DNA of 21,019 nt, from the NCBI GenBank assembly GCA_045863395.1, contig BTVJ01000113.1:1-21019 (forward strand). Reading direction: 5' to 3'. How positions within the stretch are numbered: position 1 is the first letter of the stretch; every line of letters begins with the position of its first letter. The notes beneath the pieces are model-generated. The model made no database searches. It was not told where the DNA came from and saw only the letters and a list, made by a program, of their open reading frames with translations. The DNA is from Myxococcales bacterium (lineage in GTDB: Bacteria > Myxococcota_A > UBA9042 > JABWCM01 > BTVJ01). Below are positions 2,459-21,019 of the stretch, one piece after another. A program made the position numbers and the translations under genes.

Positions 2459-3633
2459 GGCGCCTGCGCCTCCTCTCTCCGCTCGACCCACACACCCTCG
2501 CCACCGAGCTCCCACACACCTGCGTCCGCGGCGAGGAGCGCCCGTGCCGCCGTCTCCGCGATGGCCTGCGCCGTGTCCGGTGGCACTGCGTTGCCGATAC
2601 GCTGGCGCCAGCCCTGGTGACTGGCGCCGTCGAGGACGAGCCACTCGCCCTCGCGACCGACAGGCAGCGCCTGGAGCGCGGCCAGTTCGAGCGTCGTCAT
2701 CGGACGGTGCCATGTGCCGTCCGCTGCGATGATGATCGGCGGGTCGGCGATGCTCGACCAGGCGTTGCGGTGGTTGGCGGCGGCCACCACCGCGTGCCCG
2801 GCGTCATCCCACCGTTCGACGCCGTAGGCGCCGCGGTGGCGGTCGTCGGACGGGCGCATCTCCACCGACTCCGGCAAGTTCCGCCAGTCCCCGCCGGCGG
2901 GTACGAGCGCGAGCCGCAGCCAGTTCAGCGCGCTCAACCGCGGCAGCCGGTGCATCGGCCCGCCTGCGTCCCCGCCCGGCCATGGCACGGGGAGCGGCCC
3001 GATCACGTCGCCGACGGTGCGGAGCGTCTTCTTCGGCGGCTCGAACCAGTAGTTGGGGACGGATCGCGTGTGCCGCGCCACGAGAAGGAATCGGCGCCGG
3101 CGCTGGCCGAGTCCGCCGAGCTCGCCGCAGTCGTGCACCGTCTCCCGGCAGGCGTAGCCGTAGGACTGGAGCATCCCGACGACGACGTCGAGGAGGTGCC
3201 GGCCCCGATTCTGGATGCGGGGGACGTTCTCCAGGAGGATGAGCCGCGGCGGGCTGTCGGGCCACGCTTCGAGCGTCAGGAAGAGTCCGCGGACGGCCAG
3301 GTCCGCCATCTCCTGGTAGCGGGGCGTGCAGGCGGTTGCGGCGGGGAGGCACCCCGAGAAGCTCTTGCAGGGCGGGCTCGTGAAGAGCACCGCCGGCGGC
3401 TCGGGACACGCGGCACGCAGCTCGTCGGGCGTCATCGTCGCGAGGTCGGCGACGGTGCACGGGTGCCCCGTCAGGGCCTCGAAGTCCCGGGCCGCCGCGG
3501 CGTCGAAGTCCACGGCGCCGGCGATGCGGAACCGGCCGACGAGCCCCCGCATACGCCCCTGGGCGCGCTGGAAGCCGAGGGCTCCGCCCCCCAGGCCGGC
3601 GAAGAGAAAGAGGGCAGGGTAGGTGGTCGTCAC
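2455..3633 (-). CDS. DNA (cytosine-5)-methyltransferase, orphan
   Basis: Motif I LFAGLGG, IV SPPCKSFS, VI LLENVP, VIII QRRRRF, X IGNAVPP. GTG start with GGAGG RBS. Confidence 0.95.
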   Translation of the reverse strand: MTTTYPALFLFAGLGGGALGFQRAQGRMRGLVGRFRIAGAVDFDAAAARDFEALTGHPCTVADLATMTPDELRAACPEPPAVLFTSPPCKSFSGCLPAATACTPRYQEMADLAVRGLFLTLEAWPDSPPRLILLENVPRIQNRGRHLLDVVVGMLQSYGYACRETVHDCGELGGLGQRRRRFLLVARHTRSVPNYWFEPPKKTLRTVGDVIGPLPVPWPGGDAGGPMHRLPRLSALNWLRLALVPAGGDWRNLPESVEMRPSDDRHRGAYGVERWDDAGHAVVAAANHRNAWSSIADPPIIIAADGTWHRPMTTLELAALQALPVGREGEWLVLDGASHQGWRQRIGNAVPPDTAQAIAETAARALLAADAGVWELGGEGVWVERREEAQAP

Positions 3634-3744
3634 GCAGGCACCTCCGGAGGCTCGGGCAGCGGCGCCCAGGCGACGACCCGGCTCCAGCACTCCACGATGC
3701 CGGGCGTGGTCAGGCCGGCGAAGAGGAAGAGGGCAGGGTAGGTG
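3592..3744. repeat. 34-bp direct repeat (3592-3625 and 3711-3744, one mismatch) of the methyltransferase 5' end
   Basis: caggccggcgaagagRaagagggcagggtaggtg occurs twice; both copies encode TYPALFLFAGL on the minus strand. Confidence 0.9.
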
Positions 3745-3749
3745 CTCAT
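3630..3749 (-). pseudogene. Chimeric 39-aa remnant: MTase N-terminus fused to a DUF551-like C-terminus
   Basis: MSTYPALFLFAGL-TTPGIVECWSRVVAWAPLPEPPEVPA. WxPLPEPP is the DUF551 signature. Coupled to both neighbours. Confidence 0.7.
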
Positions 3750-4174
3750 GACACCAGTCCATCGGCCATATCAACCGCCGCGCCCCACGCCTCCAGCCAC
3801 TCCGTCAGCGGCTCCGCATACGGCCGACCGGCGAGCATTACGACCACGTCGCCACGGATGACACGCGCTCCCAGCACGTAGCGATGCCCCATGAGTTGGC
3901 CGCGGCATCTCGTGGCCCACGCGGTGCGCGGGTCCGGGGAGACCGTCCGGCCGCGGCCGCTCCGGATGACGTCGGCCATGGAGCGCTCGTACGGCTCCAG
4001 GACCTCGTCCGGGTCCACGACGTGGTGCAGCGCGGAGAGCACATACCAGCGGTCGCAGGTGGCCTCGGCGTAGGCCACGGATGCGCGGAAGAGCTGCCCC
4101 TGGTACAGGTCGCGGGCAGGGGCAGCGTGCAGGAGCTTGGTGCGGCTGCACGCGATGATGGCGATGCGGGTCAT
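3746..4174 (-). CDS. DUF6884-like protein (142 aa)
   Basis: IAIIACSRTK...PARDLYQGQLF...WYVLSALHHVVDPD..LEPYE...LAGRPY. The true start is ATG 4174, coupled to the upstream stop. Confidence 0.8.
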   Translation of the reverse strand: MTRIAIIACSRTKLLHAAPARDLYQGQLFRASVAYAEATCDRWYVLSALHHVVDPDEVLEPYERSMADVIRSGRGRTVSPDPRTAWATRCRGQLMGHRYVLGARVIRGDVVVMLAGRPYAEPLTEWLEAWGAAVDMADGLVS

Positions 4175-5992: not shown

Positions 5993-6990
5993 CACTTCAC
6001 CTCGCTCACGTCGAAGCGCCTGTGGGTACTCGTCACGGAGCACTCCGCGGCGATGGTTGGGTACTTGCTCTGCAGCTTCTTGGTGTCGATCCGCGTTGCG
6101 CTGATGGTCGGCCACCTTACGAGGTAGCGGCCCACGGAGCCGCGCTCAGACTCGGCGAGTAGGGTCTTCAGCTCCGCCTCCACGGCGGAGCGGGCCCGCT
6201 CGGCGGTCTTCTGCTCCAGGATGATCGCCTCGCGGTCCTGAATGAGCTGGAGTGCGCGGTCTGGCAGGCGCACCACGTCGGGAGACGACTCCGCCCACAT
6301 CTTGGCCAGCGCCTCGGAAGTGCTCTCGTCGCCGTCCACCGGTGGCATCTCCCCGGCCTGCACGTAGCCCCAGAACTCCCGCTCCTGCTCGAGCAGCCAG
6401 GCGATGGCCTCCTCGTCGCGCTCCACGATGCGCTCCTCATAGTGGTTGCCCCCGAGCAGCACGGGCACGTAGGCGCGACGCACGCGGGGCCCCAGCACTG
6501 CCAGGTAGTGGAGGACCTGCCAGTAGTAGTCCGCCGGCACGCCCCCCTTCCACTTGCGCTTCATGTATTCGCCGCCGGTCTTCACCTCGACGAGGACGTG
6601 CTCTCCGCCGGAGTCCCGGGCGAGGCCGTCCAGGTTGGCCAGGCACCAGGGGATGTTGCTGTGCCGCAGACTCGCACCCACTCGCAGCACAGAGAGCTCC
6701 GGGTGACGGTCGGCGAAGGCCTGCAGCACGGCAGACTCGTGCCTGTGGCCCCACTCCATGGGCTCCGTCTGCTCCCGCGGAGGGATCCGGCCCGTCTTGT
6801 CCGCCCAGAGGTAGACCCGGCTCCGGTACTCGCTCACACCAGCGGCCGCCGCAGCGTCCGACCCTCCGATGCCAGCGGTGCGCAGCTCGAGCCACTGCTC
6901 ATGCGTCAGCTCGTCATGCCAGCCCACCACGGCGCCGTCGCCCACGCGACCCACGCGCCCGATGGTCCCAATCTGTGCCGTCCCGATCAT
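5992..6990 (-). CDS. YqaJ-like viral recombinase / lambda-type exonuclease
   Basis: WLELRTAGIGGSD, WADKTG, MEWGHRHE, NLDG, VEVKT, YYWQVLHYL. Confidence 0.93.
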   Translation of the reverse strand: MIGTAQIGTIGRVGRVGDGAVVGWHDELTHEQWLELRTAGIGGSDAAAAAGVSEYRSRVYLWADKTGRIPPREQTEPMEWGHRHESAVLQAFADRHPELSVLRVGASLRHSNIPWCLANLDGLARDSGGEHVLVEVKTGGEYMKRKWKGGVPADYYWQVLHYLAVLGPRVRRAYVPVLLGGNHYEERIVERDEEAIAWLLEQEREFWGYVQAGEMPPVDGDESTSEALAKMWAESSPDVVRLPDRALQLIQDREAIILEQKTAERARSAVEAELKTLLAESERGSVGRYLVRWPTISATRIDTKKLQSKYPTIAAECSVTSTHRRFDVSEVK

Positions 6991-9323
6991 GCCGCTTCCT
7001 CCAGCGCCTCTGGCGCCGTCATGTCCACCACCGTCCAGCCGTCCCACGTGCCGCCCGGGAGCGTGCAGACCAGGACCTGATCCAGGCGCCCGGCGCCCAC
7101 CAGGCGCTCTGCCAGGCGCGCGAAGGCGACCTGGTTGTGTCGGTCCAGCACCTCGGCGCCGTCGACCACCACCAGGCGCAGGGGGCTGTTCGCCAGGTGG
7201 TGCATCGCCGCAGCCACCATGAGGAGCGTCAGCGCCGCCTCGCCGGCGGACAGCGCCGACAGCGGCACCACCACCGGCCCCCGACGCCAGCCGATGCGAG
7301 GCCGCCCGCCTGACTCGACGGCGAAGCTGCCGAGCTGTGACGCGAAGGCCGACGCCATCTTCTGCACGGGGCCCGTGAGTGGCGAGAGCACGCCGGCCGT
7401 GGCCTCCGCCTGCACGCCGGGCAGCTCCGCCTCGGCCGCGCGCCAGATCTCGTGCCAGGCTTGGGCGACCTGCCGGGCCCGCTCCGCCTCGGCCTTCCGC
7501 GCGACGGCCTCCTCTCGAGCCAGCGTCCGCGCGTCGGCCTCGGTCCTGGCCGCCCGGGCCTGGCGCAGGTCCATGTCCGCCTGCCTGGCCCTCAGCTCGG
7601 CCTCATCGAGCGCGCGCCTGACCGGGGCGTCTTCGACGGGGCAGGACTCCTGACGGATCGCCTCCAGGCAGCGCCGCGCCTCGATCACCCCCGACGTGGA
7701 CCGGCTGGCGCTGGAACGTAGCGACTCCAGCTCCCGTGCCAGATCCTCGACGCGCAGCGCCATGGAGTCTCGCTGCCCCTCCAGCCGCGCCTGGTCCGTG
7801 TCCGCGCCCGATGCCGCGCGCTTCTCCAGACCGGACACCGCCCGCTCTGCCCCGCGCAGCGCGTCCTCCGCGGCCCGCCTGCTCCGCTGCGCATCGCTGC
7901 GAGCCCCCTCCGCCGCGTGCTCTGCCGCCTGCGCCTCGCGCAGCAGGGTCTCCGCCCGCTCGTGGGCCATCGCGGCCTCGTCGGCCTCGACATGCAGCGC
8001 CTCCACCTGCTCGTGCCCCGTGTCGAAGTTGTCCGGGAGGTCCTGCCGACAGGTCGGGCAGCGTCCGTCCGCGTAGGCCCCGTGGTTGCGCAGCGCGTCC
8101 CGCAAGGCCCCATCGACGCGGTCCAGTGCCGCCCGCGCGGTGGAGGCCGCCCTGCGTGCCCGCTCCAGCGCATCGCGGGCAGACGACCACGCCTCCTCCG
8201 CCTCCGACAGCCGGCGCCCCGATGCGTCCAAGGCAACTTGCGCCCGGTCCCGTTCGGTCCTGGCCTTCAGGAGCTCCGCGCCGAGGCCCGTGTCACTGGC
8301 CCTGCGGATGAGGTCCTCCTCGATGCGGCGGATCTGCGCCCGGCTGGCCTCGATGCTGTGCTCCGCCTGCTCGTACTCGCGCACAGCCTCACGCGCCCTA
8401 CTCTCCGCCGCATCTACGGCTGCCTGGGCCATCTGCTGTCGCTTCCGGCGCTCGGACTCCCAGGACGCCCGTTGCTCCTCCAGGGATGCGACGCGCTGCC
8501 GCGCCCCACCGAGCTGCTCCTTCGCCGTCGCCGCGGCCAGCTCGGCGGTCTGGCACGCGTCCGTCACCCGCTGCATGGTCGCCGCGTCAGGTGCATCTGG
8601 GATCGGCGCGTCGATGAGCGCGCGTGTGGACCGCACGTCGCTGTTCGCCTGGGTCCGCTGGGCTCCGACGTACCGCCCGATCTGGTCCACCGCATCGAGG
8701 GGAGCCTCCACGGCGTCCACGGCCGGCTCCAGCAGCGCCGCAAGGCCGTCCTCGCTCAGCTCCGCGCGGTCCAGCGTGTCGGGCTTGACCCGGTCCATGG
8801 TGGCGGTCACCAGCGCGTTGAGCACGTCCCGCGGCGTCCACGTGGACGACCCCGAGCAGAGCGCCAACACCGCCCGCTCCAGCGCCACCGGCTCCATGCG
8901 TCGGAGACCCTCCAGGTCAAGCAGCGCCACGCCCAGGGTGCCACCGTACCGCTTGGCCACCGCTTCCCGCGCTGCGGCGTTGTCGCCGGCCGGACCAGGC
9001 TCACCGTGGGCGGGCGGGAAGACCTGTCGCGTGCCTGCCGCCTCCGACGGACGGAAGCCGAAGGCCACCGCGTAACCGTCATTGTCGCGCGCCGTCACCG
9101 TCCACGGGCGGTCTGCCGTCAGGTCGAGCAGCGGCCCCACAGTCGCCATGCCCTGCTTGTCCACGTCCCGCCCTGGGAGGCGCTGCGTCAGGGCGAGCAG
9201 CACTCCCTCGGCGACAGTCGTCTTGCCCGCGCCGTTCGGCCCCCGGATGACCGTCAGGTCGTCCAGGTCCACCACCACGTCACGGCCGCGGAGGCCGCTC
9301 ACTTCCACCTGGGTCAGCCGCAT
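6987..9323 (-). CDS. Rad50/SbcC-like SMC-family ATPase (778 aa)
   Basis: Walker A GPNGAGKT, long coiled coil with central CPTC zinc hook, signature LSAGE, Walker B VVVDGAE, D-loop LD; AGGAGG RBS. Confidence 0.9.
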   Translation of the reverse strand: MRLTQVEVSGLRGRDVVVDLDDLTVIRGPNGAGKTTVAEGVLLALTQRLPGRDVDKQGMATVGPLLDLTADRPWTVTARDNDGYAVAFGFRPSEAAGTRQVFPPAHGEPGPAGDNAAAREAVAKRYGGTLGVALLDLEGLRRMEPVALERAVLALCSGSSTWTPRDVLNALVTATMDRVKPDTLDRAELSEDGLAALLEPAVDAVEAPLDAVDQIGRYVGAQRTQANSDVRSTRALIDAPIPDAPDAATMQRVTDACQTAELAAATAKEQLGGARQRVASLEEQRASWESERRKRQQMAQAAVDAAESRAREAVREYEQAEHSIEASRAQIRRIEEDLIRRASDTGLGAELLKARTERDRAQVALDASGRRLSEAEEAWSSARDALERARRAASTARAALDRVDGALRDALRNHGAYADGRCPTCRQDLPDNFDTGHEQVEALHVEADEAAMAHERAETLLREAQAAEHAAEGARSDAQRSRRAAEDALRGAERAVSGLEKRAASGADTDQARLEGQRDSMALRVEDLARELESLRSSASRSTSGVIEARRCLEAIRQESCPVEDAPVRRALDEAELRARQADMDLRQARAARTEADARTLAREEAVARKAEAERARQVAQAWHEIWRAAEAELPGVQAEATAGVLSPLTGPVQKMASAFASQLGSFAVESGGRPRIGWRRGPVVVPLSALSAGEAALTLLMVAAAMHHLANSPLRLVVVDGAEVLDRHNQVAFARLAERLVGAGRLDQVLVCTLPGGTWDGWTVVDMTAPEALEEAA

Positions 9324-9361
9324 CGAATCCTCCTATCATCCGCATACTGCGCGGGTAGACG

Positions 9362-9464
9362 TTGTGGGCGGTCCCCCTCCCGTGGCACCATCGGGACGCG
9401 CGAGGCGGCCGTTGTGGTGACCACCGCCCCGCGCGTTGCACGAACCACGGGAGGAAGGACCATG
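9362..9464. ncRNA. Structured ~103-nt element, copy A (inverted homologue of 14719-14823)
   Basis: Outer stem 9370-9385/9445-9461 and inner 14-bp stem 9396-9409/9423-9436. Carries TTGTGG-18-CACCAT plus the SD and ATG of ORF 9462-9704. Confidence 0.65.
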
Positions 9465-9704
9465 GAAGACAAGCCTGTGATGAACGACCACACCCGGGAT
9501 GTTCGAGGAGCAGCGGTTGCTGCGCGCCTCGCATCGGAGGTCGTGGCGGAATTCGCCGAGCAGATAGTCGAGCGCAAGCATGGATCGGACGCGCTCGGGG
9601 TGTTGCTCGATGCACATCACGAGATCATCGTTCGCATCTGGAAGTCGATTCGGAATGAGTTCTTGAGGAACCCGACTCGCACCCCTCGCTCGGAGTGGTT
9701 CTGA
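9462..9704 (+). CDS. Small helical hypothetical protein (80 aa), antisense to the left early operon
   Basis: GGGAGG RBS within element A; MEDKPVMND...RTPRSEWF; composition is protein-like. Confidence 0.7.
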   Translation: MEDKPVMNDHTRDVRGAAVAARLASEVVAEFAEQIVERKHGSDALGVLLDAHHEIIVRIWKSIRNEFLRNPTRTPRSEWF

Positions 9705-10044
9705 GTGCCGCAATCATCCGGAGCAGCGCGGCGGCTGACTCATTGCCCCGGCAGGAAAACGACTCCATGCAATCGGAGCGCTCAGCCTGCAAGGCCGTCA
9801 ACTCCGCTCGATGAAGCATCTCGTATAGGATGGCCTGGAACTTGTTTGCGAACTCGCGCGCGGCGTCGTGCAACGCGACTATGTCGTCAAGCCCTTCCGG
9901 GCCGGCACCCACGAACACACACACCGTCTTGTACATAGAGGCTGCGATGGCTCGCGCCTGCTCCTGGTGGTGGCTCGCCAGTTCGAGCGTGACAGTCGGA
10001 GGGTCTCCTCCTACTTCAATGACGGTCCCTTGAATCAGTCGCAT
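9625..10044 (-). CDS. Hypothetical protein (139 aa)
   Basis: GAGAGAGG RBS, MRLIQGTVIEVGG...; its 3' end overlaps the antisense ORF by 80 nt. Confidence 0.65.
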   Translation of the reverse strand: MRLIQGTVIEVGGDPPTVTLELASHHQEQARAIAASMYKTVCVFVGAGPEGLDDIVALHDAAREFANKFQAILYEMLHRAELTALQAERSDCMESFSCRGNESAAALLRMIAALRTTPSEGCESGSSRTHSESTSRCER

Positions 10045-10088
10045 GGAATCAGCCTCTCTCCCGCGCCGTGCGCGGATCACTTGTTGGC

Positions 10089-10475
10089 TCAGTTGATCAG
10101 GAAGCCCGCACGGACTCGCACGGTCTCCGCGATGGCGACGATAGAGACGTTGAAGTCTTCGCCCGCCGCTTCGACGAGGCGCCGGAGGCCCCGCATGGTC
10201 CCGACGAGGACCAAGCGGGCCGCAGCCGGCGGGGGCTGCTCGGGGTCGGTGACAGCGCCCCCGGTCGACGGCACGGGGCTGAGGGCGCGCGCCCCCTGCG
10301 TCCGCACGCAGAGCCTCGTGAACCTCCACTCCGGCCCCCGGTCGTCCGACGTCAGCACGGCCCGGGCCCCGCACCCGTAGTCCGTCGTCCTCTTCGTCCA
10401 CAGAGCGCGCCGGGAGCCGCAGTACACGCACTCCGCGGGGGCCGTCGCCAGTCGCTGGATGTTGCTCGGTTTCAC
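10089..10475 (-). CDS. Hypothetical protein with CxxC; first gene of the PL-like transcript
   Basis: GAGGTG RBS, GTG start, CVYC motif. Confidence 0.6.
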   Translation of the reverse strand: MKPSNIQRLATAPAECVYCGSRRALWTKRTTDYGCGARAVLTSDDRGPEWRFTRLCVRTQGARALSPVPSTGGAVTDPEQPPPAAARLVLVGTMRGLRRLVEAAGEDFNVSIVAIAETVRVRAGFLIN

Positions 10476-10802
10476 GTTCGCACCTCGTCACTGCAATACT
10501 TTGCCGTTGCCTGAACCGGCGTTCAGGGCCATCATGGGTCCACGTCGCCCCGGCGACGCCCGCTCCCGGTGCCCGCACAACCGCGCCCCACTGCCGGGGC
10601 CGTGTCTTCCCGGCGTCCGTGGGCGCCGGTACTGCGGGGCCGACGCGCTGACCTGCGGCTCCTCTTGGCGAGGGAGCGCGGGAGGGGCCGCGGGGCCGGC
10701 AGGGGCCGCGCTGGTGGGCGGCGTGCTCGGACCCGCGGGCCCCTCCCGGCGGGGGCGCGGCGGCGGGGAGTGGGTTGTCAGGGAGCGACGAGTACGAAAG
10801 AA

Positions 10803-10832
10803 ACTTTAGCTTAGACCTAATTGGCGAGTCAA
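10803..10832 (-). promoter_or_regulatory. PL-like sigma70 promoter
   Basis: TTGACT-18-TAAAGT with ATTAGGT in the spacer; aligns with the PR-like promoter at 13778-13807. Confidence 0.7.
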
Positions 10833-10850
10833 GGGCAAAATGTAGGTTGT

Positions 10851-10864
10851 ACCTAATGCTAGGT
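10851..10864. promoter_or_regulatory. Putative operator ACCTA-ATGC-TAGGT
   Basis: Palindrome sharing the ACCTA/TAGGT half-site with the PR operator. Confidence 0.5.
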
Positions 10865-10870
10865 GAGGCG

Positions 10871-11131
10871 ATGCGACGGCTGGCATGGCGGAACGTGATT
10901 GGGGCGATGCAGGATCTGGACCTTGATGATCCGGCTGAATTGACCGACGGGGCAACAATTGTCGCAGAGGTGCTGAGCGGCGCCCTGTCCGGGAAGCTTG
11001 TGCTTGGGGTTATTGATGGAACGGAGCTTGTCCCAGCGGAGCCAACAATGCGCCGCCTCCCGCTCTCCTCCGCCGACCCCCGCCTGCGGGTGCTCGGAGC
11101 CGTGGTCGGCTTCACCAGGCGCGACGCGTGA
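10871..11131 (+). CDS. Small protein (86 aa) resembling a degenerate S24/LexA C-terminal domain
   Basis: AGGTGAGG RBS. DGATIVAEV...ELVPAEPTMRRLPL...RVLGAVVGFTR resembles the end of LexA/UmuD domains. No clear Ser-Lys dyad. Confidence 0.6.
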   Translation: MRRLAWRNVIGAMQDLDLDDPAELTDGATIVAEVLSGALSGKLVLGVIDGTELVPAEPTMRRLPLSSADPRLRVLGAVVGFTRRDA

Positions 11132-11152
11132 GCCCTGCACGGACGCGCAGAA

Positions 11153-11181
11153 TTGCTCCGCGCGGCCGGCGGTTGTACCTT
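11153..11181 (+). promoter_or_regulatory. Putative hicBA promoter
   Basis: TTGCTC-17-TACCTT just upstream of the GGAGGT RBS. Confidence 0.45.
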
Positions 11182-11199
11182 GCTGGAGGTGCACTCGCC

Positions 11200-11640
11200 A
11201 TGAATGGGACGACGCGCTTGAACCTGATCAATACCTACACCTTCTGGGTCCACGCATACCGGGCTGACGACCTGCCTGGGGTGTGGCTCGCCCATGTGTT
11301 GGACATCGACACCGTGACGCAGGGCTCCTCCCTCCGCGACGCCCTGGAGCACGCGGTGGACGCCGCGACCATCGTCGTCGGAGAGGACAGGGCTGCTTCG
11401 CGCGACCTGGCCGACCGCAAGGCCCCGGAGGAGTTCTGGGAGAAGCTGCGCTCCCTGTTCAAGGAGGGGTTCTTCGTGCGCTCCGCCGAGCAGCTCCTCG
11501 ACCACCAGGATGCCATCGTGGAGCTTGCCACCCAGATCAGCATCACCTACGGCACCGTGATCGCAGACCACGACCCGGTCAACGCCGACTCCATCCCCAA
11601 CTTCTGGCTCAAGGAGACCTTGGGCCAGCTCCACTCGTAG
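11200..11640 (+). CDS. hicB: HicB-like antitoxin (146 aa)
   Basis: GVWLAHVLDIDTVTQGSSLRDALEHAVDA matches the HicB partial RNase H fold; GGAGGT RBS; adjacent to hicA. Confidence 0.8.
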   Translation: MNGTTRLNLINTYTFWVHAYRADDLPGVWLAHVLDIDTVTQGSSLRDALEHAVDAATIVVGEDRAASRDLADRKAPEEFWEKLRSLFKEGFFVRSAEQLLDHQDAIVELATQISITYGTVIADHDPVNADSIPNFWLKETLGQLHS

Positions 11641-11650
11641 CCCCCCGTCC

Positions 11651-11878
11651 GTGCCCTACCGACTTCGTGACGTGAAGCGACACCTCGAAGCCCGCGGCGT
11701 CGCGGTCGTCGAGGCCGGCGGCCGCCACCCCTACCGTGCCGAGCGCGACGGGAAGGTCTACCCGATCCCCGCACACAACGGCCTCAAGTCCGAGCTCGCC
11801 GACGTCTTCATCCGAGGCGTGTGCCGCTGCTTCGGCCTGGACCAGGACGCGTTCTTCCGCGACCTGCGCGGCGAGTAG
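11651..11878 (+). CDS. hicA: HicA-like toxin (75 aa)
   Basis: RDVKRHLEARG...GGRH...YPIPAHNG.KSEL...IRGV...FGL is the HicA dsRBD-like pattern. GTG start without an evident SD. Confidence 0.8.
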   Translation: MPYRLRDVKRHLEARGVAVVEAGGRHPYRAERDGKVYPIPAHNGLKSELADVFIRGVCRCFGLDQDAFFRDLRGE

Positions 11879-11950
11879 GCGCCGCCTCCCGCTCTCCCCC
11901 GCCGACCCCCGCGTGCGGGTGCTCGGGGCGGTCGTGGGGACGGGGAGATC

Positions 11951-12412
11951 CTACGGTGGGTCGGGGATGCGGTTCAGGAGCAGGAGGGGCAACACCAAGG
12001 TGGGGATCCCAGTTCGGACGGACATCGATTGGAGGAACTCGCGGTAATAGGGCCAAGCGTTGAACACGGCGTTCCTGGTAGCAAATGCCGCTCGGTCCCG
12101 TTCAATCACGTCCCTGGGAAGAGCCTCATTGAACAGGTAGGCCAGCATGTAGGTAGCCTCGGCCTCGAACCAGGTCACGCCGGACTTCGCCTCCACGACC
12201 TCCGTCGCCATCTTCACGACCACCGTGTAGATGCGGTTCTCTTCGTCCACCATGTCAGTGGCTTGTGTCGTGACCTGGGGCCTCAGATCAGGATCCACGG
12301 GCTGTGGCGGCACGACCGGGTGGAGCTTCGACCGGCACTCGAGCAAAGCAATATTGAGCAGTTGAAGCCATTCATGCAGCGCGGTGATGCTCTCTGGGGC
12401 AGCGTCGCTCAT
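11951..12412 (-). CDS. SecB-like chaperone of a TAC system (153 aa)
   Basis: LQLLNIALLECRS...WFEAEATYMLAY...FATRNAVFNAWPYYREFLQSMSVRTGIPTLVLPLL matches the SecB/Rv1957-like C-terminal signature; ATGA-coupled to the antitoxin. Confidence 0.88.
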   Translation of the reverse strand: MSDAAPESITALHEWLQLLNIALLECRSKLHPVVPPQPVDPDLRPQVTTQATDMVDEENRIYTVVVKMATEVVEAKSGVTWFEAEATYMLAYLFNEALPRDVIERDRAAFATRNAVFNAWPYYREFLQSMSVRTGIPTLVLPLLLLNRIPDPP

Positions 12413-12927
12413 GCCGCTTTTCCCTCACGCGGGGGAAGGCGGATGCCCCCCTGGGTCATGGATGGCGCAGGAATGTGCTGCGACGCTCCGTTACTGGAGT
12501 ACGTTGGCGCGTTCACCTCTACCCGGAGTGTGCAGCGCTGGAACGAAAAAACGTTCGCGGGAAGTAACGGAGCTTGCGCGCACGGGCTGAGCTTATCGAG
12601 TAGCCCCAAGGCTGCCTGAATGTTGGAGCCATGAGCGGCTTGCCGTGGTCGGATGAGTGGCACCATTTCCAGGTCCAGCGCATCCAGCGCCCGGAACAGC
12701 GTCTTGAGCGAGACGCCGTCCCCCGTGTAGAGACCGAGCGCCCGCTGCGCCGTTGAGATGGACCCCACCCGCCGGGCGAATTCTCGCATCCCCCAGCCCT
12801 TTGACAGCCTGGCCTCCTCGACATTGCGCGCCACTTCGCCAAGGAAGCGACCAAGGCGGTACGCTTGGCGTCGCTCCGCGCTGGCTTCCCGGTCATCTTG
12901 TACCCTGTCACTCCACTTCGCGCCCAT
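12409..12927 (-). CDS. HigA-like XRE-HTH antitoxin with C-terminal extension (putative ChAD)
   Basis: KWSD...AY...VEEARLSKGWGMREFARRVG...VSLKTLFRALDALDLE followed by a ~75-aa extension. ATG 12927 has a GGAGG RBS. Confidence 0.82.
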   Translation of the reverse strand: MGAKWSDRVQDDREASAERRQAYRLGRFLGEVARNVEEARLSKGWGMREFARRVGSISTAQRALGLYTGDGVSLKTLFRALDALDLEMVPLIRPRQAAHGSNIQAALGLLDKLSPCAQAPLLPANVFSFQRCTLRVEVNAPTYSSNGASQHIPAPSMTQGGIRLPPREGKAA

Positions 12928-13332
12928 CGTCGGCCTCCATGTCCTCGTCGTGTTCATCGTCTTCGGGCCAAGGGATCTGTCGCCGGCGCTTCAGTAGTGC
13001 GTCCTTGACCTTCGGCAGTATGGCCCGAGTCCCCTTGTTGCGGTCACAGAGAAGCACCCACACAGCGCGGTTCGTTTCGTCCACATCAACGTAGATCCTG
13101 AGGTTGTGGTCGTAGTGACGCTTCCGTATCTCCCAGATGCCACGGATCCCTTCCTCTTCCGTGAGCTGCTTGTAGGCTGGAGGCCAAGGGCTGGCCCATG
13201 GTCCAAGCGCGTCACCAGATCATCGAGTTCGCCAAAGAACTCATCGAGGAACCCGGCGCACCTCCGCTCGATGCGTCGGACTTCGCGCTTGCATGACTTG
13301 TGCGGGTCGTTCCACTTCCAGCCGTCCGCCAC
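12908..13332 (-). pseudogene. HigB/RelE-family (Gp49-like) toxin interrupted by a 1-nt frameshift near 13183
   Basis: Frame 1 reads MADGWKW...LDHGPALG. The shifted frame reads PAYKQLTEEEGIRGIWEIRKRHYDHNLRIYVDVDETNRAVWVLLC...GREVE*, has a stop at 13222-13220 and no start codon ahead of the WEIR motif. Confidence 0.82.
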
Positions 13333-13344
13333 ACCGCCCCTCAC

Positions 13345-13372
13345 ATCGTACCCAAAAATGGGTACACGTCAA
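13345..13372 (-). promoter_or_regulatory. TAC operon promoter with palindromic operator
   Basis: TTGACG-16-TACGAT; the perfect inverted repeat GTACCCA-AAAA-TGGGTAC (13348-13365) covers the spacer and -10. Confidence 0.72.
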
Positions 13373-13707
13373 CGCGACTGCCCTTCGCGCCTCACCATCC
13401 CCATCTGCTCCGCCTGCTCCACCACCGCTCGGACCAGCCCCACCCCCCGCTCGTCGAGCTGCACCACCCGGTGCACCAGCTCTCGCGTCGCCTCCGGGAG
13501 CTCCGCGTCAGGGGGGTGCGTGTAACCAAGGACCTCGTGCTCGGGGACAGAGAGGGCCGTGGCCATCAACGAGAGGGTGTGGGATGTCCAGCCGTGCCTG
13601 TCCCGCTCAAGCTGAGAGATCGTCGCCGGGTTCATCTCGACTTTCTCGGCGAGCTGCTCCTGCGTCAATCTCGCGGCCCGGCGGATCTGGCGGATGTGAA
13701 GCCTCAT
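13369..13707 (-). CDS. CI-like XRE-HTH repressor (112 aa, no peptidase domain)
   Basis: IRQIRRAARLTQEQLAEKVEMNPATISQLERD; divergent from the cro-like gene. Confidence 0.88.
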   Translation of the reverse strand: MRLHIRQIRRAARLTQEQLAEKVEMNPATISQLERDRHGWTSHTLSLMATALSVPEHEVLGYTHPPDAELPEATRELVHRVVQLDERGVGLVRAVVEQAEQMGMVRREGQSR

Positions 13708-13777
13708 GGCTGAATGGTCGCACCTCCTAGAGGTTCCACACCATGGGGGCTGTCCTTCAGTCGGAGCAACTTTGGGC

Positions 13778-13807
13778 TTGACCTAAACATTAGGTTGAGG
13801 CTAAGGT
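13778..13807 (+). promoter_or_regulatory. PR-like promoter with operator ACCTAA-ACA-TTAGGT (13781-13795)
   Basis: TTGACC-18-TAAGGT; ATG lies 6 nt after the -10 with no SD. Confidence 0.75.
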
Positions 13808-13813
13808 TCCCGC

Positions 13814-14242
13814 ATGAAGCTGGACGACTTCAGGACAAGTCGAGGATTGACCTACAGCGAACTCGCCGAGCTTGTAGGGGCGAGGAATACCAACGCCGCG
13901 TGGCGTTGGTGCCAAGGCGAAGCACCAGAGCGCTTGACCGCTGCCCGCATCAGCGCCGCGACGGACGGCCTGGTAGCGGTGGAGGAGCTGCTCTACCCGG
14001 ACGGCGTACCCGAAGGTGCCCGGATAGCACGGTCTGAGCCGTGCCCTGAGAGCCAGGGCGCCGCCTCCCCAGATACCACCGCGCACGAGTCTCAATGCCC
14101 TCAGGACGGGCCGAACGCCCCCGGGACCGACGCTGACACCACCGCCGACGGGGGCCAAGGCCACCAGGTTCAGCGGGAGGGCGTCACCCACGACGAAGAC
14201 GACACAGCAACCCCGGCGGCGGGCGACCGCAGAGCGGCGTAG
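13814..14242 (+). CDS. Cro-like HTH regulator with low-complexity C-terminal tail
   Basis: MKLDDFRTSRGLTYSELAELVG...AAWRWCQGEAP...ISAATDGLVAVEELL. Confidence 0.85.
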   Translation: MKLDDFRTSRGLTYSELAELVGARNTNAAWRWCQGEAPERLTAARISAATDGLVAVEELLYPDGVPEGARIARSEPCPESQGAASPDTTAHESQCPQDGPNAPGTDADTTADGGQGHQVQREGVTHDEDDTATPAAGDRRAA

Positions 14243-14252
14243 GAGAACGACG

Positions 14253-14522
14253 ATGCACGTTCCAACTCGACCACCGTCCTCCCGTACACGCTTCATCGCG
14301 GTTGCGATCATCGGCCACGCACTTCGCGTGAGGCGCTGGTGGCGAGTACTTGTCGCGGAAGCGCACGACAAGTACGCGCGGAGGAAGCCGTACCCGTTCG
14401 ACCGCACCCCCCCGGAAAAGTGGAAGGTCATGCAACTCCCCGTAGAGACATTCGGGGGGATCCGTCTGGCGAATGTGCATTGCGAGAATCTCAGCCGCGA
14501 GGTGTCTTCATGCGCGGAGTGA
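14253..14522 (+). CDS. Hypothetical protein (89 aa)
   Basis: AGGAG RBS immediately after the cro stop; 3' end overlaps the antisense ORF by 32 nt. Confidence 0.55.
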   Translation: MHVPTRPPSSRTRFIAVAIIGHALRVRRWWRVLVAEAHDKYARRKPYPFDRTPPEKWKVMQLPVETFGGIRLANVHCENLSREVSSCAE

Positions 14523-14721
14523 CGCTGTCCGCGAAGTGCAGCGCCTCGTTCCAGAGCGCATGTACGTCCGCTTCGGACCCCGCGATAGTCTGGCCCACCA
14601 GCCAGGCTTGTGCGGCGCACGTGCGATTGATGGCCAACCGAGTGGCCATGCCTTCCTCGTGCACCGCTTGGGTCAATCGTTCGATGGCCAGCCGAAGCTC
14701 CCGGATCTCTTCTGTATCCAT
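14491..14721 (-). CDS. Small helical hypothetical protein (76 aa), antisense to the right early operon
   Basis: GGGAGAAGGGA RBS within element B; MDTEEIRELRLAIERL...KTPRG. Confidence 0.7.
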   Translation of the reverse strand: MDTEEIRELRLAIERLTQAVHEEGMATRLAINRTCAAQAWLVGQTIAGSEADVHALWNEALHFADSVTPRMKTPRG

Positions 14722-14823
14722 GGTCCCTTCTCCCGTGGTTGGTCCGCGGCGCAGGACGGTGGCTCCACCACAGAGCCGTCGTGCGCCGAGCCCATGGTGC
14801 CACGGGAGAGGGGCCGCCCTCAA
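14719..14823. ncRNA. Structured ~105-nt element, copy B (inverted homologue of 9362-9464)
   Basis: Outer stem 14722-14738/14800-14815 and inner stem 14747-14760/14775-14788; TTGAGG-18-CACCAT on the minus strand. Confidence 0.65.
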
Positions 14824-14898
14824 TGCTCTGGTGCGCTGGCATGTGGGGCAGCTTGCCGCCGTCCTGGCCTATCCGCACGCACAGAGGGGGGCCTGACC

Positions 14899-15459
14899 GT
14901 GCCAATCACGCACCGCACGCCACGGGAGGTCCGCGCAGCGCTCTCGGCGCTCTCCGCCGAGGTGGGCTCCACCGAGCTCGCGCGGGCCGGCGGGGCTGAG
15001 GACCGCTCGACGGCGACCCGGTGGGTGAGCGGCGAGCTGCCCCTGTACCTGGACACGGCCTGCGCCGTCGCGCGGGCCTTCCAGGGCCAGGAGTGGGCGG
15101 AGCACGTCCGAGTCCTCGGGCGCGCCCTGGCCCTGGCCATCGCCGATGCCGCTGGGCTGCTCGACGGCGGGGCCCCGGCGGTCAGCCCCAGGGTCGCCGA
15201 GCAGACCTTCTGCGAGGGGGCGGCGGAGGCCGCGACGCTCGCAGCGGAGGAGGCTCGCCTCGCAGCCCGCATCGAGCGCGACGGGGTCGTCGACCGAGCC
15301 GACCTGCCCGCGCTGCAACGCTTGGAGGAGCGCCACATCACGCAGATCGACCGCGCGACGCAGCGCCTGGCGCTCGTCAGGCAGCATCGCCGGACCCTCG
15401 ACGGGGCGGACATCCGCCTCGTGCGCCCCGCCAACCCGGGGCCGGGGAGGCGGTCGTGA
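14899..15459 (+). CDS. CII-like phage regulatory protein (186 aa)
   Basis: N-terminal HTH (STELARAGG..DRSTATRWVSGE), helical C-terminus with DGVVDRADL; position after cro; GAGGGG RBS with GTG start. Confidence 0.7.
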   Translation: MPITHRTPREVRAALSALSAEVGSTELARAGGAEDRSTATRWVSGELPLYLDTACAVARAFQGQEWAEHVRVLGRALALAIADAAGLLDGGAPAVSPRVAEQTFCEGAAEAATLAAEEARLAARIERDGVVDRADLPALQRLEERHITQIDRATQRLALVRQHRRTLDGADIRLVRPANPGPGRRS

Positions 15460-15614
15460 TGGCCCGCGCGGCCCGGGCCGCAAGCCTCGCCCTGGTGCAC
15501 GGGGCCGTGCTGCTCGGGGGCGCGGCGATGGCCGTGGGGGTCGTGGGGATGCTGCTCCTCGTCACGTGGGGCGGCGGACCGTGGGATGGAGACGTGGAGG
15601 ACGAGGAGCGATGA
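15459..15614 (+). CDS. Small membrane protein (51 aa)
   Basis: One long hydrophobic segment and an acidic tail; coupled at both ends. Confidence 0.6.
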   Translation: MARAARAASLALVHGAVLLGGAAMAVGVVGMLLLVTWGGGPWDGDVEDEER

Positions 15615-16747
15615 GCCAGACCCTACACGAGGCCGAAGCAGACCGCCTGGAAACCCTCGCCGCGGAGCACGCCGACCTCCAGGCAGGCGAGCGCGACGCG
15701 GCCGCAGCCCTGCTCCAGTCCGCGGCGGAGCGCGGGCGCAGCATCGAGCTGCTCCGGGCGGCTGCGCGTCTGCTGCGGCACGGCGCCTCGCTGCAAGATG
15801 ATCCAGTCGCCGAGCCCGAGGATCCACCCACGCCGCGGGTGGGCGAGCCCGGGAGCGAGCCCGGCGGCGCCCCCGTCAGCTCGCTGGTGACGACCGGCGA
15901 CACCGGGGCCTCTGGCGGCCCTGTTGGCGACCGGGAGGGCTCCTGCAACGACGGCAACCCCTGCACCACCGAGGGCGCGCTCCCCTGCGGCCACCCGCAG
16001 GACGCAGTCAGAGGAAACGCCAAGGGCCCGGGCGGGACGCGGCACTGCGGCATCTGCGCGTCTCAATCCCCTCTCTGCGGGGTCGCCGTCGACTGTACCA
16101 CGGCCGCCGATCCACTCGCCACCACCACTCAGGACCGCATCCTCGCCGGCGCCGCCCTCGGACGCGCCCGGGCCGCGGAGCCCACGGAGTGCCCGGACTG
16201 CGGACGCACCATCGCGCGCGGCCAGATCCCCGGGCACCGGGGCACGGACTCGTGTAGGCGGGAGCAGGAGCGACGTGCCAGGGCTGAGGAGCGGGCCGCG
16301 GTGCTCGCGGCGCCCGTGTCCGATGCGCCGCCGGCCAGGCCCACGACCGTGATCCTGGGCGGGTCTACGTCACGCATCGTGACGTGCGACCTCTGCGGCC
16401 GCGAGATGCCACAGGCGGGGCTCATTCCGCACCGGGGGCGGGGGCCGTGCAAGGAGCGCCAGGCAGCGCAGCGGGCCGCGGTCGACGCCGAGCCCGCGGC
16501 CCCGGTCGCCCAGGCCGAGCCCAAGGCGGCACCCGTCGATGCCGGCGAGCCCAAGGTAGTGCTGCCCCTCTCGCGCCCCCAGCGCCGCCCCCTCCGGGCG
16601 GAGGACGTCCCCAGCAGCATCTGGGGGCGTCAGGTGCAGCCCGGCGAGCTGCGGGGTGTCGCCGTAAGCGTGACCCGCGCCATCGGGGCGGCCCCAGAGG
16701 TGACCACCGACAATCGACTCCCACGAGCGACGGAGGTGCTCTCGTGA
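15611..16747 (+). CDS. Hypothetical protein with repeated C2HC-type zinc fingers (378 aa)
   Basis: CPDCGR......GHRG..SC and CDLCGR......PHRG..PC, plus CGH...CGIC; GAGGAG RBS, ATGA coupling. Confidence 0.72.
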   Translation: MSQTLHEAEADRLETLAAEHADLQAGERDAAAALLQSAAERGRSIELLRAAARLLRHGASLQDDPVAEPEDPPTPRVGEPGSEPGGAPVSSLVTTGDTGASGGPVGDREGSCNDGNPCTTEGALPCGHPQDAVRGNAKGPGGTRHCGICASQSPLCGVAVDCTTAADPLATTTQDRILAGAALGRARAAEPTECPDCGRTIARGQIPGHRGTDSCRREQERRARAEERAAVLAAPVSDAPPARPTTVILGGSTSRIVTCDLCGREMPQAGLIPHRGRGPCKERQAAQRAAVDAEPAAPVAQAEPKAAPVDAGEPKVVLPLSRPQRRPLRAEDVPSSIWGRQVQPGELRGVAVSVTRAIGAAPEVTTDNRLPRATEVLS

Positions 16748-17170: not shown

Positions 17171-18139
17171 TCACTTCTGCCCGACTTCGCCCTCCCCCTC
17201 GCCGGCCAGCACCGCACGGAGCTGCGCCTCGGTCATGTGCTCCACGCGGAGCACCTCACCCTCGATGGTGTGGGGCTCCGACACGAAGGCCCGGGCCGCT
17301 TCGGGGGTCGGGAGCTTCTGACAGATCAGCCGGGCGCGGCGGAGGGGGAGCCGACTCAGATCCGACCCGGAGTCGAAAAGCGAACCGCGGTTCGCTTTTG
17401 GCCCCCCGAAGGTCTCCGCGATCTGCATGTACTGCTGCGCGATCCTCTCCTTCAGCCCAGCGTCCTCCCGGACGAAAGACTCCCACCGACCGTGGGGGAC
17501 GTGCTGGCGGACGTCGAGCAGCGCCAGGCCGATCCGGATGGCGCTCTCCAGCATGCGGCCCTTCTCTTGGTGGATCTCGTCGGCGCGGGCCCGGAGCCAG
17601 CCCTCGGAGCCGGGTGCCGCGATGGCCTCGCCGGCGGGGGCGGGGTCCGTGGGAGCCAGGGGACCGGGAACGACCGGGGGCGCCTCGCCGCGGCGGACAG
17701 AGCCCTCGGGCACCACCAGCACCGGGAAGGGCTCCCGCAGGGAGCGCGACAGGGCGTGCTCGTCGAGGGCGACGAAGGCCCGCGCCATCTCCAGGCCCTG
17801 GCGCACCACGAAGGCAGCAGACGACCAGCGGTCGAGCAGACCGTAGAAGGCCGTCTCCGCCTCCAGGGCCTCGATGATGCCGTCCCGCACCTCCATGGCC
17901 TCCATGGTGAGCAGGTAACGGCGCAGGGCCCGCGCCGGCCGATGCCAGTCCTCCGACCCGTCGAGCCGCAGCGGATCGCTCGTGACGTGCGCGAGCCGCA
18001 TCGTCTTGTCGCGGTCGAGGCGGGCCCGGCGCGCCTTCTCCTCGGGGCTGTCCTCGCGGCGGACCATGGCGCTTCCATCGGGGGCGGGCAGGGGGAGCTG
18101 CTTCGGGGCTTGGGTAGATCCGTGCTTGCGTGCTACCAT
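17171..18139 (-). CDS. DUF3102-domain protein
   Basis: AIRIGLALLDVRQHVPHGRWESFVREDAGLKERIAQQYMQIAE; ATG 18139 has GAGGTG (alternative start 18190). Confidence 0.78.
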   Translation of the reverse strand: MVARKHGSTQAPKQLPLPAPDGSAMVRREDSPEEKARRARLDRDKTMRLAHVTSDPLRLDGSEDWHRPARALRRYLLTMEAMEVRDGIIEALEAETAFYGLLDRWSSAAFVVRQGLEMARAFVALDEHALSRSLREPFPVLVVPEGSVRRGEAPPVVPGPLAPTDPAPAGEAIAAPGSEGWLRARADEIHQEKGRMLESAIRIGLALLDVRQHVPHGRWESFVREDAGLKERIAQQYMQIAETFGGPKANRGSLFDSGSDLSRLPLRRARLICQKLPTPEAARAFVSEPHTIEGEVLRVEHMTEAQLRAVLAGEGEGEVGQK

Positions 18140-18247
18140 CGGGGCACCTCTCGGCCTTCGGGCCGGGTTGGGGGCGGGGCGCTGGATCATCTTGCCGGGT
18201 GGCCAGCGCCTCGCTCGCTTTCCTCACCTCCTGGCACCAATCCGGAT

Positions 18248-20595: not shown

Positions 20596-21019
20596 GTGGC
20601 CGAGACCCCCTATCGACACGTGCCGGCCGATCTGCTCGACCATCCGAAGTTCGCCCGGATGTCGGACGCAGCGCGGATAGTGCATCTCGGACTGCGAACC
20701 ATGGCAGACCACCACGGGCGAACTCAGGCGGATGCTTGGCTCGTATCTGACCGCTACTTCCGCTGGCTGGGCGAGGATGGCGTCCAAGCTGCCCTCGAGG
20801 AGAACGTTGCCAGGGGCTGGATGGTGCTCTACGTGGTGGATGACGTCCAGTGGGCGTGGTTCAGCGATACCGACTCCATGCACAAGCCGTCGTGGTTGGA
20901 GCGTGAGCGTCCGCGCTCGTCGCGCCCCATCCCCCCCGGGTATCAGGATCCGCGCGAGGAGTCGCCCCCGCGGAGTCCCGACGGACCCCCGCGGAGTCCC
21001 GACGGACCCCCGCGGAGTC
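20596..21019 (+). CDS. Phage replication initiator, N-terminal part (runs off the window)
   Basis: AGGAGG RBS and GTG start. The frame is open: MAETPYRHVPADLLDHPKFARMSDAARIVHLGLRTMADHHGR..., then a Pro-rich linker containing tandem repeats. Missing from the ORF track because it has no stop in the window. Confidence 0.75.
   Translation, partial: MAETPYRHVPADLLDHPKFARMSDAARIVHLGLRTMADHHGRTQADAWLVSDRYFRWLGEDGVQAALEENVARGWMVLYVVDDVQWAWFSDTDSMHKPSWLERERPRSSRPIPPGYQDPREESPPRSPDGPPRSPDGPPRS
20965..21019 (+). repeat. 21-bp tandem repeats (at least 2.6 copies), putative iterons of the phage origin
   Basis: CCCCCGCGGAGTCCCGACGGA at 20965-20985 and 20986-21006, partial copy at 21007-21019; in frame (PPRSPDG). 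Confidence 0.75.

Follow-up and report, generated by a model that had tools for sequence, protein, structure and literature searches.

Ranade and Poteete (1993) is reportedly the primary paper on the PsieB/sieB/esc/sas region of phage P22. In that phage, sieB has its own promoter, lies backward in the early leftward (PL) operon and runs tail-to-tail with gene 24 (record NC_002371). The available parts of four sources describe sas as an RNA antisense to sieB that switches its translation (PMC12197685, PMC13397905, PMC7067206, PMC5415839), and the part of PMC13397905 at hand lets sas be mapped, by eye, from sieB codon 2 back through the promoter. Here we describe an element that occurs twice, as copies A and B, in the 21,019-nt contig BTVJ01000113.1 (the window), which is one entire contig of an 8.77-Mb Myxococcales assembly (71% GC, 97% complete). 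Profile scans of the open reading frames (ORFs) in the window identify the contig as the early half of a lambdoid-type prophage, and each copy is placed after the second predicted gene of its own early operon, copy A in the left and copy B in the right. On our preferred reading, to which we give a probability of a little under 60%, each copy is a sas/sieB-like control head that supplies the promoter, 5′ hairpin and ribosome-binding site (RBS) for a cargo gene expressed in lysogeny, while the early transcript carries a self-folded silencing antisense RNA. The element most likely works like PsieB/sas and is not a sequence member of it. Judged by layout, which is the same, P22 PsieB/sieB/sas is the closest known system, one that an earlier note on this DNA, made from the letters alone, had missed.

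That note had proposed that 9362-9464 and 14719-14823 are homologous. The match extends to 9362-9466 and 14717-14823, at 76.9% identity over 108 columns (blastn, E 5.8e-14), and the next-best match of copy A in the whole assembly has an E value of 0.014. A covariance model built from copy A alone recovers copy B at 81.6 bits, and the only host matches of a two-copy model (R2) are these two copies. Pairing is kept despite the divergence of the letters, as the note had said: 29 of the 30 pairs hold, with 22 invariant, five compensatory (four in the inner stem, plus a C-G to U-A exchange in the outer one) and two altered on one side only, and a single pair is broken (G-U to G.G). If the 13 stem substitutions are placed at random, at least 29 pairs are kept with a probability of 1-2e-5. 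The early strands fold with z-scores of -5.9 (A) and -4.8 (B), with 0 of 200 shuffles as good, against -2.8 and -2.9 for the opposite strands. All five wobble cells, at four independent positions, are G-U on the early strand, again as noted before; such a bias arises by chance about 1 time in 8 and is suggestive of an early-strand RNA, weakly if taken alone. The loop word CACCACA, rightly read in both loops, is found within the window only there. The element is a real one: structure-conserved, two-stranded and present twice in one prophage. Visual inspection gave no reason to retain either a U-turn motif in the loops or a pseudoknot in which the loop would reach over the 14-bp stem to the internal loop.

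On the strand opposite the early transcripts, both copies hold what the note had listed, namely a -35/-10 pair with an 18-bp spacer, a Shine-Dalgarno (SD) sequence and the ATG of a 76-80-aa ORF. A matrix trained on the rest of the genome gives the predicted promoters PB and PA 15.6 bits (rank 4 in the window) and 13.8 bits (rank 8), next to 16.0 for the predicted early rightward promoter PR and 15.3 for PL. Among coding positions, 5 of 280,800 score 13 bits or more. Enrichment of the motif over shuffles is the independent part of the promoter evidence. In 3617 host upstream regions, TTG-N3-spacer-TANNNT was observed 346 times with a 17-bp spacer (8 expected) and 270 times with an 18-bp spacer (6 expected). 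The -10 variant CANNNT is enriched as well (189 vs 42 at 17 bp and 93 vs 40 at 18 bp), far less so at 15, 16, 19 and 20 bp, and the exact string TTG-N21-CACCAT has 10 occurrences where 0.6 are expected. As predictions, PA and PB look like real promoters. A sigma-54 promoter was dropped on visual inspection.

The position of PB allows a different use of the same promoters. PA and PB might be pRE/paQ-like antisense promoters at the lysis-lysogeny decision, with transcripts from PB running through cro into cI; the sequence common to A and B would then be the site of an activator, and the ORFs would be incidental. PB does lie between cro and the gene in the cII position and points at cI, like P22 PRE, and no terminator was seen after ORF B. 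A DNA site, however, needs no compensatory base pairs, a strong SD and ATG are kept in both copies, and by their scores PA and PB are sigma-70 promoters that need no helper. Nor was 14899-15459 confirmed as CII: neither a fold nor a sequence match was obtained, and its structure model has a predicted local distance difference test score of 58. We regard this explanation as quite improbable.

The geometry of the start sites, the main clue, ties promoter and fold together. The inner stem of each copy starts 5-6 nt past the -10, at the expected transcription start, and in the outer stem the promoter spacer is paired with the SD region. The ends of the element coincide with the -35 and the start codon of the opposite strand, and the homology between A and B stops at the cargo's second codon. 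Transcripts initiated at PA or PB would be missing the spacer arm; they would open with a 5′ hairpin and leave the RBS accessible, whereas read-through RNA on the same strand would bury the RBS. The promoter-started mRNA cannot form the outer stem, yet the pairing of that stem is kept, through one compensatory and two one-sided changes, so the target of selection must have been either the early-strand RNA or read-through RNA. The early-strand RNA carries the exact complement of the cargo's SD and AUG in its first arm, which the far arm masks, and its inner loop is the complement of the mRNA's loop. The predicted gain on duplex formation is about 100 kcal/mol for cognate pairs and about 20 for cross pairs.

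A 30-bp interrupted helix between two cistrons is a plausible RNase III substrate, and the host genome encodes RNase III. The element could accordingly be a processing, stability or pause site that tunes the sbcC-like gene and the gene in the cII position, independently of any cargo. The opening of the downstream RBS, however, is hardly altered by the element (5.9 vs 7.5 and 16.9 vs 15.7 kcal/mol), the stem is not followed by a U-tract, and the idea leaves unexplained why the element's ends match the opposite-strand -35 and start codon. Cleavage could equally release an antisense RNA in a sas-like model. We think a processing site of this kind improbable.

Building on the computed homology, pairing pattern, promoter class, start-site geometry and energetics, we infer how the control head would be transcribed and timed, how pairing would start at the loops, whether RNase III takes part and what the cargo does. 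A small accessory ("moron") gene would sit backward in each early operon, with the copy as its control head. In the lysogen, PL and PR would be repressed and host RNA polymerase would start at PA or PB, on the first base of the inner stem. The resulting cargo mRNA would carry the 5′ hairpin without the arm able to pair with its RBS, and the 76-80-aa cargo would be translated. Upon induction, early transcription would cross the head on the other strand and interfere with its promoter. The early RNA would match the leader, SD and AUG of the cargo as their exact complement, and would fold as the 30-bp interrupted hairpin, masking its anti-SD arm until the complementary inner loops met. The full duplex would then block or destroy the cargo mRNA. 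The cargo would most likely be an exclusion or defence factor that has to be off for the phage's own growth.

Set beside P22 PsieB/sas, the locus shares a backward gene with its own promoter (here predicted) in an early operon, tail-to-tail with an early gene, and an early-strand RNA of about 105-127 nt over the cargo start codon, leader and promoter (here a structured region delimited by its fold, and in P22 as far as the available parts of the sources go). It differs in having two paralogous heads, one per early operon, in a spacer that pairs with the RBS in a 16-bp stem, and in its cargo, which consists of two unrelated small helical proteins without a SieB match. If the control-head reading is right, sas/sieB logic is not an enterobacterial peculiarity; it would be present, with an unrelated RNA fold, in the prophage of a distant high-GC host, and twice in that one genome. 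Since the spacer pairs with the RBS, only RNA from the element's own promoter would be translatable, which is a compact and testable design. The layout is already known from phage P22, and what is new is the sequence and fold, present in two copies.

The two cargo ORFs are orphans. As the earlier note had it, ORF A and ORF B are not obviously related: they give no alignment with each other. Each overlaps convergently with the sense gene upstream, by 80 nt for A and 32 nt for B, as had been described, except that the start of the upstream gene at copy A is corrected to 10044 (139 aa). In each case the ORF's own frame has the best or near-best codon score of the six. Substitutions between ORF A and its 83% relative are mostly mild. 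The sole other match of ORF B, a repetitive 1358-aa protein, was discounted as coiled-coil noise. A check for nested starts, which gave no clear support for an Esc-like product, found Met7 of ORF A retained in the relative, and Met25 of ORF B preceded by an SD-like word and replaced by Thr in the near-identical variant. Matches to the Atlas reached 0.85 and 0.80 for the two ORFs, below threshold. If the control-head reading is right, these two orphan proteins of 76-80 aa become candidates for exclusion or defence factors.

Sequencing runs add a weak hint of expression. In RNA run X20, four of six aligned records are near-identical to the window and two of these fall in ORF A and ORF B (chance 0.005, for windows chosen afterwards). 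Uncovered regions of the RNA runs carry no weight as evidence.

A number of points weigh against the control-head reading. Two sequences allow no family-level covariation, and the shuffle control of pairing with two rows is weak (18 of 500), the alignment having been fitted to the structure. The ranks of PA and PB are partly by design, since the seed of the promoter matrix had fixed letters (TTG, A and T) and permitted C at the first -10 position. The duplex energy follows from the complementarity of any convergent transcript and is no proof of regulation. No sequence or fold match to sas was obtained: the best R2 score on the P22 region is 7 bits and lies off sas, and both alignment and folds differ. 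Neither ORF has a Pfam, PHROGs or PADLOC match, and the one NCBIfam match falls far short of its cut-off. Their codon scores are like that of cro, yet 23-26% of stop-free antisense frames score as high, so that codon use leaves the gene status of both ORFs unsettled. No terminator-like site was found just after either ORF, in a scan blind to hairpins without U-tracts. The four X20 pieces all have lower GC (0.60-0.65 vs 0.67), which could explain their placement. RNA run X19 has six near-identical pieces, four of them among the matches listed; one falls within ORF A (chance about 0.24) and one within the lytic sbcC-like gene. All these RNA contigs are unstranded and shallow (depth 2-5) and could be DNA.

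Variant phages bear on how the head is inherited. The listing gave 23 runs, of which 20, from 10 studies, contain part of 8500-16000, and four were compared with the window; no variant letter is listed inside either element. DNA run X8 yields one 11,286-nt contig in which 8800-10797, including copy A and ORF A, is almost unchanged. In place of 14184-14858 it has 1087 other letters, so that ORF B, the early-right gene and copy B are lost in a single block, whose breakpoint is 36 nt past the -35 of copy B. The earlier note had pictured the element as an exchange platform, an idea that fares poorly in this one informative variant because copy B is lost along with ORF B and the breakpoint lies outside the element, although a diverged third copy in the replacing DNA is possible. 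X8 speaks for a head that moves together with its cargo, with the crossover made elsewhere. Since the comparison did not align copy A on copy B in X8, an equally diverged third copy could hide in the replacing DNA. The X8 contig has different DNA at 10797-11888 (PL side) and at 13527-14059 (cI start, operators and cro start) as well. By its replacements of the cI N-terminus, the PR operators, the cro start and the PL side, X8 is apparently a natural immunity-specificity variant.

The earlier note had drawn on lambda nut and HK022 put for an antitermination role. In the available part of PMC9378689, putL and putR of HK022 provide one homologous structured RNA per early transcript. A put-like cis RNA that acts on RNA polymerase during both early transcripts, for antitermination or anti-pausing, with the backward promoters and ORFs as passengers, would account for the single homologous copy in each early operon and for pairing that favours the early strand, and a scan of 28 ORFs yielded no N-like protein. 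In that part of the source, however, put consists of two stem-loops that bind RNA polymerase; it measures about 70 nt and is located 0 and about 270 nt from the transcription start, and no antisense promoter or ORF is described with them. The element is one long hairpin at 1336 and 908 nt. Its best-kept letters are those of the promoter and RBS arms (20/22, 14/16 and 8/10) and not of the loop (6/14), its homology ends at the cargo's second codon, and copy B is replaced together with its cargo in X8 while copy A stays. We consider a put-like function rather unlikely. Of the bidirectional module once proposed, the structured early-strand RNA and the real-looking backward promoter and RBS stand, while put/nut-like antitermination as the main role finds no support, given a single hairpin 0.9-1.3 kb from the promoters. 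Both functions could also be combined in a new class of dual-strand phage RNA switch, in which the start-gated cargo head would double as a protein-free signal (an antiterminator or an RNase III-released antisense RNA) that both early operons need. Lytic-on would then be coupled to two-cargo-off, and the diverged inner stems would give each pair its specificity. We hold this larger claim to be unlikely.

Searches for relatives of the element turned up the host and, beyond it, chance matches. The assignment to no known family made by the earlier note agrees with a covariance-model and Rfam check, in which no Rfam model came near cut-off for either copy. Model R2 found only the host among 107 genomes of the class; in 151 genomes of the phylum it gave one match of 25.8 bits, rejected because it lies inside a coding gene and has 7 broken pairs. 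An exact pattern combined with blastn found only the host in 401 phylum genomes. Blastn of 101 relatives gave short matches in 9 other genomes (E 5e-4 to 0.009) and no true third copy, and with phages, plasmids and E. coli as blastn targets no match had an E value below 0.3. Pattern scans returned 0, at least 119, 1, 2 and 1 stretches in viral contigs, 17 in genome contigs and 30 in metagenome contigs. Such stretches were rescored with nhmmer (149 loci and 30 loci) and with R2 (58, 3 and 81 loci, the last including 80 of the at least 119); the best R2 score among them was 18.3 bits, again with no true third copy. Related prophages sought through flanking proteins were absent from viral contigs, GenBank phages and genomes of the class, and no relatives of the flanking genes appeared outside Logan/NCBI clusters. 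With no relatives of the flanking genes, the missing homologues may reflect an unsampled phage group and not a private element. We found no description of the element in the literature searched, a search that did not extend to most subscription papers, including older Mx8 work.

The nature of the repeat itself bears on one further alternative, that a moron promoter was duplicated in the palindromic relic of a mobile element, with the compensatory changes made by DNA template switching and not by selection on RNA. The inverted ends of 16 bp fit such a relic, and metagenomic repeats resembling repetitive extragenic palindromes (REP) have the same outer-stem core, though the search pattern selected for it. 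Those REP-like matches reach at most 18 bits with the covariance model, however, and the genome holds two copies only. Wobbles, bulge and loops persist where a DNA-level process would have perfected them, and the wobbles are without exception of the kind that fits one strand. We judge this origin very unlikely. The earlier note had named a host-wide repeat, either REP or a miniature inverted-repeat transposable element (MITE), among the findings that would refute its reading; two copies in 8.77 Mb do not amount to many dispersed ones. The integron attC core RYYYAAC...GTTRRRY occurs 0 times in the window, by a pattern that also drew a blank on the host's integron-integrase contig and so had no positive control. 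At nine loci in metagenomic contigs (L152, L156, L157, L165, L171, L173, L174, L177 and L179) we observed GTAG-type inverted repeats of about 140 nt with constant arms and variable centres, which we take to be REP/REPIN-like. They resemble the element in the searched core only.

Other described systems share single features with the control-head reading. According to the parts available of PMC11087260 and PMC12288877, the Tha/Ith noncontiguous operon of Staphylococcus aureus prophages and excludons likewise use convergent overlap to make lysogenic and lytic expression mutually exclusive, and the available part of PMC9936078 gives the same mutual-exclusion logic for olg1 of Fc02. In Tha/Ith, however, the defence gene belongs to the cI operon and is inhibited by the product of the antisense gene, and the section of PMC11087260 at hand describes no conserved structured head; at our locus, no HEPN or defence domain was found. 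Kinship with P1 C4 and P4 CI, which the earlier note had raised, is not supported, as the fold differs and no target sites were seen. The C4 RNA of P1/P7 (RF01695) is, in the available part of PMC2864571, likewise a phage RNA closed by a long stem, and its size is similar. It is unlike the element in being a three-way junction that acts on sites in its own operon, where the element is an unbranched hairpin. The element scores below the 45-bit cut-off of RF01695, and in a test for C4/P4 CI-type targets that left shorter or mismatched ones outside its scope, the 7-nt loop complement occurred only inside the two copies within the window. Prophage morons antisense to lytic genes, such as STMMW_20121 in the available part of PMC7067206, are also small, replaceable and driven by their own promoter; they differ from the present case, where a structure-conserved head is common to two unrelated cargos and no terminator was found.

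The coordinates of the element and its neighbours are collected in Table 1.

Table 1. The two copies of the element, their predicted promoters and cargo, and neighbouring features of the prophage, in window coordinates.
Feature	Position	Strand	Remarks
Copy A	9362..9466	- (early, PL)	Outer stem 16 bp, 9461-9445 with 9385-9370
Copy A, inner part	Inner stem 14 bp, 9436-9423 with 9409-9396	-	Internal loop between stems; loop CACCACA 9419-9413
Copy B	14717..14823	+ (early, PR)	Outer stem 14722-14738 with 14800-14815
Copy B, inner part	Inner stem 14747-14760 with 14775-14788	+	Loop CACCACA 14766-14772
Predicted promoter PA	9362..9391	+	-35 TTGTGG 9362-9367, 18-bp spacer, -10 CACCAT 9386-9391; start ~9396-9398, base of inner stem
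Predicted promoter PB	14794..14823	-	-35 TTGAGG 14823-14818, 18-bp spacer, -10 CACCAT 14799-14794; start ~14789-14787
SD of ORF A	9450..9458	+	In one outer-stem arm; opening 5 vs 22 kcal/mol (PA-started vs read-through RNA)
SD of ORF B	14725..14734	-	In one outer-stem arm; opening 4 vs 20 kcal/mol (PB-started vs read-through RNA)
ORF A	9462..9704	+	80 aa, helical, no family; one full-length relative, 83% identity
ORF B	14491..14721	-	76 aa, helical, no family; only a near-identical variant (two changes) known
SbcC-like ATPase	6987..9323	-	First gene after copy A in the left operon
Early-left gene	9625..10044	-	139 aa; tail-to-tail with ORF A, 80-nt overlap
Predicted PL	10803..10832	-	1336 nt upstream of copy A; CCTAA-type operator repeats close by; 15.3 bits
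cI-like helix-turn-helix (HTH) repressor	13369..13707	-	Profile match; 112 aa
Predicted PR	13778..13807	+	Palindromic operator in spacer; CCTAA-type repeats; 908 nt upstream of copy B; 16.0 bits
cro-like gene	13814..14242	+	Leaderless after PR; weak HTH match, E 0.017
Early-right gene	14253..14522	+	89 aa; tail-to-tail with ORF B, 32-nt overlap
Gene in cII position, after copy B	14899..15459	+	No family or fold match

The prophage genes recognised are those for an integrase, a C5 methylase, an exonuclease, SSB, YqaJ, the SbcC-like ATPase, the HTH repressor and RusA. Another backward gene of the right operon, encoding a DUF3102 protein (17171-18190, - strand), has no copy of the element; a rightward promoter (14.5 bits) is predicted at 18110 (+), inside its 5′ part.

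Between the two early promoters lie several further modules. A promoter of 17.1 bits at 13372 heads 11951-13372 (- strand), which holds a RelE/HigB-like or other ORF, an HTH gene with a weak HipB match and a SecB-like gene. The last matches PADLOC PD-T4-9_C (E 7e-4) and is mostly deleted in X8. The module resembles a toxin-antitoxin-chaperone system, the toxin label being a guess. A 60-nt direct repeat with 90% identity (11050-11109 and 11879-11938) flanks a HicB-like/HicA-like pair that has its own predicted promoter at 11153 and in which the HicA-like match is weak (E 0.059). The pair is absent from the X8 variant, consistent with gain or loss between the repeats.

A strong predicted promoter at 10507-10535 (+, 17.0 bits) has a palindrome in its spacer (10511-10526) one base off a site that precedes lexA in the host. 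The promoter is probably under SOS control and would fire against the PL leader. Downstream of it, a 91-aa ORF (10856-11131, +) has a weak likeness to the C-terminal domain of the host LexA (28% over 75 aa, pairwise E 0.002), with no family match and a poor structure model. The ORF could be an SOS-induced antirepressor or a peptidase remnant; the prophage repressor itself is only 112 aa long.

Elsewhere on the contig, a 42-nt direct repeat (90%; 3592-3633 and 3711-3752) duplicates the start of the C5 methylase gene. Short tandem repeats at 20861-21019, inside a replication-protein-like ORF at the contig end, may be iterons and probably caused the assembly to break there. In the host, two adjacent integron-integrase genes score above the family cut-off at G000:C110:19052-20986.

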